A program made the position numbers and the translations under genes. Shown one piece after another: positions 3,119 to 29,152 of a DNA stretch of 64,000 nucleotides. Source of the stretch: Escherichia coli (GTDB taxonomy: Bacteria > Pseudomonadota > Gammaproteobacteria > Enterobacterales > Enterobacteriaceae); NCBI RefSeq assembly GCF_003334765.1, contig NZ_QOWT01000011.1; one strand, given 5' to 3'. Every line of letters starts with the position of its first letter. Position 1 is the first letter of the stretch. The notes beneath the pieces were generated by a model, which made no database searches, was not told the origin of the DNA, and saw only the letters and a list, made by a program, of their open reading frames with translations.

Positions 3119-3411
3119 TGAGCGAGTCACTGAGCTGGATGCAGACGGGTGACACGCTGGCGTTATCCGGAGAGCTGGATCAGGACGTTTTGCTACCGCT
3201 TTGGGAAATGCGTGAGGAAGCGGTGAAGGGGATTACCTGCATCGATCTTAGCCGTGTCTCCCGCGTGGATACGGGGGGACTGGCACTGCTGCTCCATCTT
3301 ATCGATCTGGCGAAAAAGCAGGGCAACAATGTGACGCTTCAGGGGGTAAACGACAAAGTGTATACCCTGGCGAAATTGTATAATTTGCCTGCTGATGTTC
3401 TGCCTCGTTAA
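3118..3411 (+). CDS. mlaB: STAS-domain protein MlaB
   Basis: ORF track 3022..3411 has a long N-terminal extension overlapping mlaC; ATG at 3118 overlaps the mlaC stop (TAATG) and gives 97-aa MSESLSWMQTGD... Confidence 0.85.
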
Positions 3412-9816: not shown

Positions 9817-9914
<98 letters not shown>

Positions 9915-9944
9915 ATAAACAAAGCGCACTTTGTCAATAATCTG

Positions 9945-22084: not shown

Positions 22085-22161
<77 letters not shown>

Positions 22162-22283
22162 CTTTCCCTTAGAGTCCTTTTTCAAATATACTGTGAAGAC
22201 TTCGGCCTTCGTAGTGGGATTTGAAAAAATCCTTCTGGAAAGTGCTCCAGACCGCAGTTGCGGTTATAGGGTTCAGTTATATA

Positions 22284-22309
22284 AAGCCCCGATTTATCGG
22301 GGTTTTTTG
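22284..22309 (+). terminator. Intrinsic (partial) terminator between metY and rimP
   Basis: ccccga-ttta-tcgggg hairpin followed by TTTTTT. Confidence 0.7.
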
Positions 22310-22367
22310 TTATCTGACTACAGAATAACTGGGCTTTAGGCCCTTTTTTTATGTCTTGGGGGTGGGC

Positions 22368-24359: not shown

Positions 24360-27032
24360 ATGACAGATGTAACGATTAAAACGCTGGCCGCAGAGCGACA
24401 GACCTCCGTGGAACGCCTGGTACAGCAATTTGCTGATGCAGGTATCCGGAAGTCTGCTGACGACTCTGTGTCTGCACAAGAGAAACAGACTTTGATTGAC
24501 CACCTGAATCAGAAAAATTCAGGCCCGGACAAATTGACGCTGCAACGTAAAACACGCAGCACCCTTAACATTCCTGGTACCGGTGGAAAAAGCAAATCGG
24601 TACAAATCGAAGTCCGCAAGAAACGCACCTTTGTGAAACGCGATCCGCAAGAGGCTGAACGCCTTGCAGCGGAAGAGCAAGCGCAGCGTGAAGCGGAAGA
24701 GCAAGCCCGTCGTGAGGCAGAAGAATCGGCTAAACGCGAGGCGCAACAAAAAGCTGAACGTGAGGCCGCAGAACAAGCTAAGCGTGAAGCTGCTGAACAA
24801 GCGAAACGTGAAGCTGCGGAAAAAGACAAAGTGAGCAATCAACAAGACGATATGACTAAAAACGCCCAGGCTGAAAAAGCCCGCCGTGAGCAGGAAGCTG
24901 CAGAGCTCAAGCGTAAAGCTGAAGAAGAAGCGCGTCGTAAACTCGAAGAAGAAGCACGTCGCGTTGCTGAAGAAGCACGTCGTATGGCGGAAGAAAACAA
25001 ATGGACTGATAACGCGGAACCGACTGAAGATTCCAGCGATTATCACGTCACTACTTCTCAACATGCTCGCCAGGCAGAAGACGAAAGCGATCGTGAAGTC
25101 GAAGGCGGCCGTGGCCGTGGTCGTAACGCGAAAGCAGCGCGTCCGAAGAAAGGCAACAAACACGCTGAATCAAAAGCTGATCGTGAAGAAGCACGCGCAG
25201 CAGTACGTGGCGGTAAAGGCGGAAAACGTAAAGGTTCTTCGCTGCAGCAAGGCTTCCAGAAGCCTGCTCAGGCCGTTAACCGTGACGTTGTGATCGGCGA
25301 AACTATCACCGTTGGCGAACTGGCGAACAAGATGGCGGTTAAAGGCTCTCAGGTCATCAAAGCGATGATGAAACTGGGCGCAATGGCAACCATCAACCAG
25401 GTTATCGATCAGGAAACCGCACAGCTGGTTGCTGAAGAGATGGGCCATAAAGTTATCCTGCGTCGTGAAAACGAGCTGGAAGAGGCGGTAATGAGCGACC
25501 GTGACACGGGTGCTGCGGCTGAACCGCGCGCGCCGGTTGTGACCATCATGGGTCACGTTGACCACGGTAAAACCTCTCTGCTGGACTACATTCGTTCAAC
25601 GAAAGTGGCCTCTGGCGAAGCGGGCGGCATTACCCAGCACATTGGTGCATACCACGTTGAAACTGAAAACGGCATGATCACCTTCCTGGACACCCCGGGG
25701 CACGCCGCGTTTACTTCAATGCGTGCTCGTGGTGCGCAGGCAACGGACATCGTAGTCCTGGTTGTTGCTGCCGACGACGGTGTGATGCCGCAGACCATCG
25801 AAGCAATCCAGCACGCGAAAGCGGCGCAGGTACCGGTGGTGGTTGCAGTGAACAAGATCGATAAACCAGAAGCTGATCCGGATCGCGTTAAGAACGAACT
25901 CTCCCAGTACGGCATCCTGCCGGAAGAGTGGGGCGGTGAAAGCCAGTTCGTACACGTATCTGCGAAAGCGGGTACCGGTATCGATGAACTGCTGGACGCT
26001 ATCCTGCTGCAGGCGGAAGTTCTGGAGCTGAAAGCGGTACGTAAAGGTATGGCGAGCGGTGCGGTTATCGAATCCTTCCTCGATAAAGGTCGTGGTCCGG
26101 TTGCTACCGTTCTGGTACGTGAAGGTACTCTGCACAAGGGCGATATCGTTCTGTGTGGCTTCGAATACGGTCGTGTTCGTGCGATGCGTAACGAACTGGG
26201 TCAGGAAGTGCTGGAAGCGGGTCCGTCCATTCCGGTGGAAATCCTCGGCCTGTCCGGCGTACCGGCTGCGGGTGATGAAGTTACCGTTGTACGTGACGAG
26301 AAGAAAGCGCGTGAAGTTGCACTCTATCGTCAGGGTAAATTCCGCGAAGTTAAACTGGCGCGTCAGCAGAAATCTAAACTCGAGAACATGTTCGCCAACA
26401 TGACCGAAGGCGAAGTTCACGAAGTGAATATCGTCCTGAAGGCAGACGTACAGGGTTCTGTCGAAGCGATCTCCGACTCCTTGCTGAAACTGTCTACTGA
26501 CGAAGTTAAAGTGAAGATCATCGGTTCTGGCGTAGGTGGTATCACCGAAACCGACGCCACCCTGGCTGCGGCGTCCAACGCCATCCTGGTTGGCTTTAAC
26601 GTACGTGCTGATGCCTCTGCACGTAAAGTGATTGAAGCGGAAAGCCTGGATCTGCGTTACTACTCCGTCATCTATAACCTGATTGACGAAGTGAAAGCGG
26701 CGATGAGCGGTATGCTGTCTCCGGAACTGAAACAGCAGATTATCGGTCTGGCGGAAGTTCGTGACGTGTTCAAATCGCCGAAATTTGGTGCCATCGCAGG
26801 CTGTATGGTTACCGAAGGTGTGGTTAAACGTCACAACCCGATCCGCGTTCTGCGTGACAACGTGGTTATCTACGAAGGCGAGCTGGAGTCCCTGCGCCGC
26901 TTCAAAGATGACGTTAACGAAGTCCGTAACGGTATGGAATGTGGTATCGGCGTTAAGAACTACAACGACGTCCGCACTGGCGATGTGATCGAAGTATTCG
27001 AAATCATCGAGATCCAACGTACCATTGCTTAA
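24360..27032 (+). CDS. infB: Translation initiation factor IF-2
   Basis: ORF track 890 aa; repetitive charged N-terminal region ([19 protein letters not shown]), G-domain GHVDHGKT. Confidence 0.97.
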
Positions 27033-27049
27033 GGTTTTTAGGGTTCCAT

Positions 27050-27119
27050 GCGGGATAAGGCGTTTACGCTGCATCCGGCATGGATTGCCTGATGTGACGC
27101 TGGCGCGTCTTATCAGGTC
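27050..27119. repeat. REP/BIME pair in the infB-rbfA intergenic region
   Basis: gcgggataaggcgtttacgctgcatccggca and gcctgatgtgacgctggcgcgtcttatcaggtc, inverted REP-type palindromic units. Confidence 0.55.
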
Positions 27120-27153
27120 AACGTGAACAGCCCTTCCACCTGAAATTAATTTT

Positions 27154-27180
27154 AAAAAGGGGCTAACAGCCCCTTTTTTG
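27154..27180 (+). terminator. Intra-operon intrinsic terminator/attenuator upstream of rbfA
   Basis: A-run, aggggct-aac-agcccct hairpin, TTTTTT; directly precedes the rbfA RBS. Confidence 0.55.
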
Positions 27181-27195
27181 TCAGGAGAATTTATT

Positions 27196-27597
27196 ATGGC
27201 GAAAGAATTTGGTCGCCCGCAGCGCGTAGCGCAGGAAATGCAAAAAGAGATCGCTCTCATCCTGCAGCGTGAAATTAAAGATCCTCGCCTGGGCATGATG
27301 ACCACCGTTTCCGGTGTCGAAATGTCTCGCGACCTGGCGTATGCCAAAGTATATGTGACGTTCCTCAACGACAAAGATGAAGACGCGGTTAAAGCGGGCA
27401 TCAAAGCGTTGCAAGAAGCTTCTGGTTTCATCCGCAGCCTGCTGGGGAAAGCGATGCGCCTGCGTATCGTGCCGGAACTGACCTTCTTCTACGACAACTC
27501 TCTGGTTGAAGGGATGCGCATGTCAAACCTGGTGACCAGCGTGGTCAAACATGACGAAGAACGTCGTGTTAACCCGGACGACAGCAAGGAGGACTAA
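27196..27597 (+). CDS. rbfA: Ribosome-binding factor A
   Basis: In-frame ATG at 27196 within ORF 27178..27597; 133 aa [23 protein letters not shown]... Confidence 0.95.
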
Positions 27598-28593: not shown

Positions 28594-28959
<366 letters not shown>

Positions 28960-28975: not shown

Positions 28976-29004
28976 AAAAGGGGGCCTGAGTGGCCCCTTT
29001 TTTC
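28976..29004 (+). terminator. rpsO rho-independent terminator
   Basis: A-run, ggggcc-tgagt-ggcccc hairpin, TTTTTT. Confidence 0.8.
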
Positions 29005-29051
29005 AAGCTGACGGCAGCAATTCACTGGAAACTAATGTATTGTTGCTATGA

Positions 29052-29152
29052 ATGATCTTCCGTTGCAGAGGTTCGCGCGGCTAATGAGAGGCTTTACCCA
29101 CATAGAGCTGGGTTAGGGTTGTCATTAGTCGCGAGGATGCGCAGAAGATCGG
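29052..29152 (+). promoter_or_regulatory. pnp 5'-UTR long stem-loop (RNase III processing/autoregulation hairpin)
   Basis: gatcttccgttgcag... pairs with ...tgcgcagaagatc about 85 nt downstream; lies between the rpsO terminator and the pnp start. Confidence 0.6.

Follow-up and report, generated by a model that had tools for sequence, protein, structure and literature searches.

In Escherichia coli, transcription of the metY-rimP-nusA-infB-rbfA-truB unit is interrupted upstream of rbfA by a terminator named t3 in the work of Brandi et al. 2019, where earlier S1-mapping is cited (PMC6511841). Northern analysis in that study revealed an RNA of ∼4.8 kb that spans rimP, nusA and infB and is undetected by an rbfA probe, and an RNA of ∼6.7 kb that was detected with rimP, nusA, infB and rbfA probes. 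The levels of mRNA ran in the order nusA > infB > rimP > rbfA, and infB mRNA is cited there as being about twofold more abundant than rbfA mRNA (PMC6511841). The rimP leader of the same unit (RF01770), with its terminators t1 and t2, is a 5' attenuator linked to the autoregulation of NusA.

The interval in front of rbfA has also been noted for its repeats. Naville and Gautheret 2010 (PMC2965389) flagged the BIME before rbfA as a candidate attenuator and clustered this element with those that precede gatY and cvpA. BIME-2 elements are defined by the combination of Y and Z2 REP units (PMC6379681). A well-described relative is REP325/naRNA4, from which the Rfam model RF02564 was built; it consists of REPs located between the co-transcribed genes yjdM and yjdN, of which the upstream gene yields more mRNA, and according to the abstract of 10.64898/2026.03.23.713779 this larger REP array acts partly through Rho and without a separate terminator hairpin. 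REPs have in addition been connected with translation; by the rule of Liang, Rudd and Deutscher 2015, as summarised in PMC12306157, a REP within 15 nt of a stop codon lowers translation of the upstream gene.

Here we describe the infB-rbfA interval in a 64-kb stretch of E. coli DNA (referred to below, at its full length, as the window). The window is K-12-like: a 401-nt query across the site was 100% identical to K-12 strains, and the flanks of the site in these matches are annotated as infB and rbfA. Window positions were converted as 3340374 minus the MG1655 coordinate, the locus lying on the minus strand of MG1655, where the gene order is metY, rimP, nusA, infB, rbfA, truB, rpsO, pnp. The infB reading frame occupies 24360..27032 on the plus strand of the window (MG1655 infB, 3313342..3316014) and ends in a TAA stop codon at 27030..27032. 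A spacer of 163 nt (27033-27195) separates it from rbfA, whose Shine–Dalgarno sequence AGGAG (27183-27187, plus strand) and ATG start codon (27196-27198, plus strand) are marked by invariant GGAG and ATG columns in an alignment of 75 sequences; the start thus lies one base before the position that a cursory reading would give. Three structured elements fill the spacer: two REP units, REP1 and REP2, and a hairpin with a T-run. This is the arrangement that a preliminary description of the locus had proposed, and inverted repeats, head motifs, the RF02564 match and folding all bear it out.

The site is very probably the already described terminator t3 inside the metY-rimP-nusA-infB-rbfA-truB(-rpsO-pnp) unit, with a BIME-2-like REP pair in front of it. 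In locus, organism and the leaky production of the ∼4.8- and ∼6.7-kb RNAs we find no difference from the published t3. Both halves, t3 and the REP pair, are already published, and the feature is therefore a known one. The t3 site has reportedly been mapped and named since the late 1980s. What is new here is comparative only, namely the constancy, throughout Enterobacteriaceae, of the terminator and of the distance that separates it from the rbfA start.

REP1 is an inverted, Y-type unit on the minus strand (27045..27084). It forms a 40-nt imperfect palindrome, with arms at 27045-27063 and 27066-27084 and a fold of -24.1 kcal/mol; its head motif lies at 27067-27079 on the minus strand with one mismatch in 13, and it differs at 2 of 32 positions from the near-identical Y-type REP at 9885-9916 of the same window. 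REP2 (27085..27122) is a Z2-type unit in forward orientation on the plus strand, and is a 38-nt imperfect palindrome with arms at 27088-27100 and 27105-27117 (-19.7 kcal/mol); its head motif, at 27087-27099 on the plus strand, also has a single mismatch, and the unit resembles the Z2 copy at 43339-43378. Over the 64 kb, the head motif gave 22 matches, against an expectation of 8.3 ± 2.9, with canonical REP copies at 9881-9916 and 43290-43378. On the plus strand, RF02564 matches the pair over 27049-27119 and scores 68.1 bits (E = 1.3e-10), above its gathering threshold of 59.5; this score reflects REP homology only and implies no nucleoid function. The MG1655 record annotates no REP at the site, but this is uninformative, as the version used carries no repeat annotation anywhere in a 35-kb region in which REPs are known.

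The two units stand head-to-head on opposite strands, separated by a 7-nt linker, and so alternate in type in the manner of a BIME. Judged from this arrangement, REP1 and REP2 can be classed as a BIME-2-like pair in the infB 3' untranslated region. Like BIME-2, the pair consists of opposed Y and Z2 units with a short head-to-head linker, is extragenic and is transcribed; unlike BIME-2, it is a single Y-Z2 pair and not a tandem array, and its K-12 units are degenerate at the GTAG/CTAC tail. K-12 REP1 carries CCAT in place of GTAG, and REP2 ends in GGTCAAC and not in GGCCTAC. Because the GTAG tail is retained in other E. coli alleles (our loci L002 and L005) and in E. albertii, the K-12 units are decayed members of the family and not units of a different kind.

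Two REP1 haplotypes are found in E. coli (27033-27090; L002, L005, L007). The K-12-like haplotype is matched by ∼4700 of 5426 genomes, is without the GTAG tail and shows a lengthened stem, TCCATGC/GCATGGA. The minority allele keeps GTAG and matches E. albertii, and the differences between the two are clustered on both arms of the palindrome. In the K-12 allele the base of the REP1 hairpin, at 27045, lies 12 nt past the infB TAA, as with the stop-proximal REPs to which the rule of Liang and colleagues applies; in the GTAG-bearing allele the REP1 stem begins further from the stop codon. Stop-proximal REP1 might in this way lower the yield of IF2. In the literature we found no evidence on infB for ribosome stalling, tmRNA tagging or a lower yield of IF2.

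Between REP2 and the terminator lies an A/T-rich unique stretch of 31 nt, CCCTTCCACCTGAAATTAA (27123..27153, plus strand), which is single-copy in E. coli genomes and is not conserved beyond the Escherichia-like group. In alignment it corresponds to the 3' arm of the lone REP that other genera carry, AGCGCCACCCGGCAATAA. On sequence grounds, the stretch may be a decayed older REP that was left beside a newer Y-Z2 pair.

The terminator itself occupies 27154..27179 on the plus strand, with five A residues, a G/C core at 27159-27173 and six T residues at 27174-27179. The hairpin, AAAAAGGGGCT-AAC-AGCCCCTTTTT (27154-27178), is a perfect 11-bp inverted repeat that pairs 27154-27164 with 27168-27178. 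Its stem and loop, GGGGCT-AAC-AGCCCC, fold with -9.5 kcal/mol for the G/C core alone and with about -15 kcal/mol once five A:U pairs lengthen the stem, and the T6 follows directly after the core. These dimensions lie within those usual for an intrinsic terminator (stem of about 5-14 bp, loop of 3-8 nt). The fold has a z-score of -3.4 against shuffled sequences, and the in-context pair probability of the core is at least 0.98. A pattern search for GGGGC-N3-6-GCCCCTTTT gave one site in the 64-kb window, where 0.01 would be expected by chance; because the hairpin is symmetric, the pattern matches both strands. From the end of the T-run to the rbfA ATG there are 16 nt, close to the ∼15 nt initially estimated. 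Hairpins with short G/C cores tend towards NusA dependence, and the efficiency of t3 may rely on NusA or on the A:U extension.

A simple consensus terminator scan of the window does not list the t3 site. This miss probably arises because extension of the stem through the A:T pairs uses up the T-run; it would then be a limit of the tool and not counter-evidence, and t3 was assessed by folding and pattern search in place of the scan. The hairpin is symmetric (27155-27177, with A5 upstream and T6 downstream) and so reads as a minus-strand terminator too; no terminus on the MG1655 plus strand is listed nearby in the published TRS tables, which would be the mark of antisense use. A short stem of the form found in t3, GGG(G)C...G(C)CCC, with a U-tract behind it, is seen in the rimP-leader terminators and in the rpsO terminator (window 22283-22343 and 28981-28997; ∼3284-3303 in the compared loci). 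The rimP-leader terminators and the rpsO terminator resemble t3 further in being internal, leaky stops in the same long ribosome-biogenesis unit; t3 differs from the rimP leader in that the latter is the 5' attenuator of NusA autoregulation.

Published 3'-end data place a terminus at this hairpin in vivo. The TRS tables (PMC10687069 supplements) contain a minus-strand terminus at MG1655 3313188-3313197, equivalent to window 27177-27186, which overlaps the last T residues of the T-run. Its dominant position, 3313191-3313193, usually falls a few nucleotides downstream of the true read-start maximum in this data set; the terminus appears in three tables, with adjusted p down to ∼1e-218 and a signal of 0.85-0.98, a local statistic that does not amount to a calibrated efficiency of termination. 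The terminus is attributed to infB under the label 'alternative primary terminus in a transcription unit', and the hairpin given for it, at -15.2 kcal/mol, is the present one, in a sequence identical to window 27132-27183 (PMC10687069). In the same three tables no 3' terminus is called at the REPs (window 27084-27125, MG1655 ∼3313250-3313290). The supplements of Adams 2021, Dar and Sorek 2018, TERMITe 2025 and RepRanger 2025 contain no entry for the site. The preliminary description had predicted attenuation at this point, to be refuted by uniform transcript coverage with no 3' ends at the T-run; the TRS terminus is inconsistent with such coverage, and the attenuation is what the published t3 provides, in the form of a terminated ∼4.8-kb RNA alongside a ∼6.7-kb read-through RNA and an excess of infB over rbfA mRNA. 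The northern blots that were suggested as a further check likewise exist in print, and show a band that stops at t3 before rbfA (PMC6511841).

We searched for RbfA in one genome per species, which gave 80 Enterobacteriaceae loci, and located the infB stop and the rbfA start in each; core statistics are drawn from 79 species-level loci, and the alignment comprises 75 sequences. A perfect core stem of G/C pairs only, 5-7 bp long, was present in all 79 loci, as GGGGC in 61, GGGGGGC in 12, GGGGGCC in 3 and GGGGGC in 3. The loop, by contrast with the stem, is free, with 33 different sequences among the 79 loci, and at one stem position A:U is replaced by G:C on both sides in 12 sequences. At least five T residues lie within 8 nt past the core in 73 of the 79 loci, and the end of the core is 21-30 nt from the rbfA ATG throughout. 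As would be predicted for a working terminator, therefore, the stem is invariant, the loop varies and the T-tract is kept. Within E. coli the same holds: the 78 nt at 27118-27195 are single-copy and present in 5426 of 5426 complete genomes, with at least 80% coverage in 5425, and the stem is constant, while the loop is CTAACAG in K-12 and O157 and CTATGG or CTTATGG elsewhere.

Upstream of the terminator the picture is quite different. Spacer lengths in front of it span 62-289 nt, and the repeats present change with the genus. The spacer is free of repeats in Cedecea, Buttiauxella, Atlantibacter, Shimwellia and relatives, where 13 distinct spacer sequences contain no REP and nevertheless retain hairpin and T-run. 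Most genera carry a single inverted REP there. A Y + Z pair occurs in Escherichia, in Pseudocitrobacter and in some Citrobacter and Kluyvera, and an ERIC-like element is joined by a REP in Raoultella, Salmonella diarizonae, Citrobacter youngae and braakii and others. Since the upstream spacer and its repeats vary while the terminator stays constant, the terminator is the selected, ancestral part of the interval, and the REPs, like the ERIC elements of other genera, are later insertions into a permissive stretch between the infB stop and the terminator. Their repeated uptake there, as REP, BIME or ERIC, argues for passengers or fine-tuners and not for a core signal. In several genera an ERIC/IRU-like element with the core CACCCCGGTCACATAGTTATCTATGCTCCCGGGGATT lies in this spacer (L010, L016, L019, L021, L024, L042, L043, L051, L054, L060); in two of these the element carries a further insertion of ∼65-70 nt, and shorter spacers look internally deleted.

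We propose that RNA polymerase from the metY, nusA and infB promoters would transcribe the two REP hairpins and then the G/C hairpin with its U-tract. Formation of the hairpin at the U-tract would release part of the polymerases, giving rimP-nusA-infB mRNAs that end at the T-run, and the remaining polymerases would read through to make the rbfA-containing ∼6.7-kb RNA, the rbfA ribosome-binding site beginning 4 nt past the T-run. The expected outcome is less rbfA mRNA than infB mRNA. A scan for σ70-like promoters between infB and rbfA, which relied on plain consensus matching and might overlook a weak promoter of rbfA, found none; since no promoter was seen and the rbfA RNA on the northern blot is the long read-through species, expression of rbfA-truB seems to depend on this leak. 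We infer that the 3' ends at the T-run come from factor-independent termination, and can likewise only infer the size of the contribution of NusA to termination at t3, if there is any. The role of the REPs is probably only auxiliary, and would amount at most to a further obstacle for 3' exonucleases, a site for gyrase or extra Rho-dependent attenuation.

One reading in conflict with this proposal is that the 3' ends at the T-run belong to longer transcripts, ending downstream or through Rho, which exonucleases trim until they stall at the hairpin. Such trimming would be in keeping with the general knowledge that REP and other hairpins are exonuclease barriers, a property also noted in the abstract of 10.64898/2026.03.23.713779, and 3'-end sequencing alone reports steady-state ends, at which termination and exonucleolytic trimming to a stable hairpin are not separable. 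A barrier needs no U-tract, however, yet a T-rich tract follows the stem in 73 of 79 species; a hairpin with U6 behind it is the classical build of an intrinsic terminator; and the REP hairpins immediately upstream, which are much more stable (-24 and -20 kcal/mol), have no called 3' ends. We regard trimming as the source of the T-run ends as extremely unlikely. The empty interval at 27084-27125 in the three tables, set against the strong site at the T-run, weighs equally against the view that the REP pair is the main, partially Rho-dependent attenuator and the hairpin secondary. That view draws on Naville and Gautheret, who group the rbfA element with BIME-based candidates and cite work on attenuation by BIMEs (PMC2965389), and on the finding that REP325 limits read-through into yjdN and stabilises yjdM (abstract of 10.64898/2026.03.23.713779). 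REP325 lacks, however, what is present here, a separate canonical intrinsic terminator after the REPs that carries the mapped 3' ends; the 13 REP-free spacers keep hairpin and T-run, and between genera the REP content changes and the terminator does not. It is highly improbable, in our judgement, that the REP pair is the principal attenuator. That the region of about 27123-27179 has a function of its own, the infB 3' untranslated region giving rise there to a stable small RNA, appears scarcely credible. Hfq-binding small RNAs carry a 3' module of an A/U-rich stretch, a terminator hairpin and a U-run, and the region resembles such a module in having an A/U-rich stretch, the terminator hairpin and U6; moreover, the REP pair matches the small-RNA family RF02564. 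This match reflects REP homology only, though, and the nucleoid role of the RF02564 RNA is itself disputed (abstract of 10.64898/2026.03.23.713779); 27123-27153 is not conserved outside the Escherichia-like group; and our search, which covered sources other than RIL-seq interaction tables, found no report of such an RNA.

It is also possible to accept t3 as a terminator and to regard it as conditional, so that relief by CspA/C/E or modulation by NusA would induce rbfA in cold shock through antitermination. The short G/C core is of the hairpin kind that tends to NusA dependence. Overproduction of CspA, CspC or CspE was reported to reduce termination at an internal metY-rpsO terminator and to raise nusA and rbfA (Bae et al. 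2000, as summarised in PMC9765468), and transcripts of the operon rise when NusA-dependent termination is reduced (PMC6511841). The proposal of Bae et al. 2000 has been contested by Brandi et al. (PMC6511841), however; the terminator tested in the former work may have been one other than t3; and no competing antiterminator structure finds support at the locus. We consider a conditional t3 unlikely. Still less likely, and in our estimate very doubtful, is that the REP pair and the terminator form a composite switch in which folding of the REP domain tunes read-through into rbfA-truB. In such a switch AGCCCUU (27129-27135) would close the REP domain through GGGUU (27041-27045) or, alternatively, would pair transiently with the 5' arm of the terminator (AAGGGGCU, 27157-27164), and the inputs could be cold, Csp chaperones, helicases such as DeaD or a ribosome terminating 12 nt upstream.

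On the preferred reading, t3 as a leaky intrinsic terminator, some influence of the REPs on mRNA stability is conceivable, in that their hairpins may shield infB mRNA from attack by 3' exonucleases after a breach of the terminator hairpin. The half-life of infB mRNA at 37°C is 2.13 min, which is described as typical; for rbfA mRNA the literature search returned no half-life. Given this ordinary infB half-life and the lack of called 3' ends at the REPs, a strong effect of the REPs on stability is not favoured, and REP-based differential mRNA stability, which the preliminary description had also predicted, is plausible but unsupported.

The site sets the ratio of expression between two groups of genes in one operon, nusA and infB being needed in larger amounts and rbfA and truB in smaller amounts, with rbfA cold-induced; it is thus a genuine point of control over ribosome biogenesis.

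Several alternative structures in the interval were considered and rejected. Pairing of AGCCCUU (27129-27135) with the terminator 5' arm as an antiterminator would be transient only, with a gain of ∼0.8 kcal/mol before the 3' arm exists; once the 3' arm is made the probability of the terminator is ∼1.0, and the element is confined to the Escherichia-like group. A helix between CCUGA (27139-27143) and UCAGG (27181-27185), which would mask the Shine–Dalgarno sequence, has its middle pair unpaired in 65 of 75 sequences, and Pseudocitrobacter combines an E. coli-type 5' side with a TCTGG 3' side. For a regulated attenuator with an antiterminator switch, no mutually exclusive helix of similar stability and with covariation support was found. 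Location of the terminator within a dispersed repeat is ruled out by the single copy of 27118-27195 per genome, and the direct repeat AACAGCCC (27126 and 27165) is compatible with chance, as an 8-mer repeated within 300 nt.

The remaining observations concern the surroundings of the site and one unusual genome. Rfam models match nearby at the S15 leader (28632-28746), SraG (28976-29147), tRNA metY (22085-22158) and the rimP leader (22250-22350); SraG is antisense, between rpsO and pnp. In a single genome of the 5426, that of E. coli 22AH104 (NZ_AP043972.1), an IS4-family element of ∼1.29 kb has inserted inside the t3 hairpin (L003 2554-3847; window ∼27160-27172), and its target duplication of ∼10 bp, GGCTATGGCC, rebuilds the hairpin and T-run on the rbfA side.
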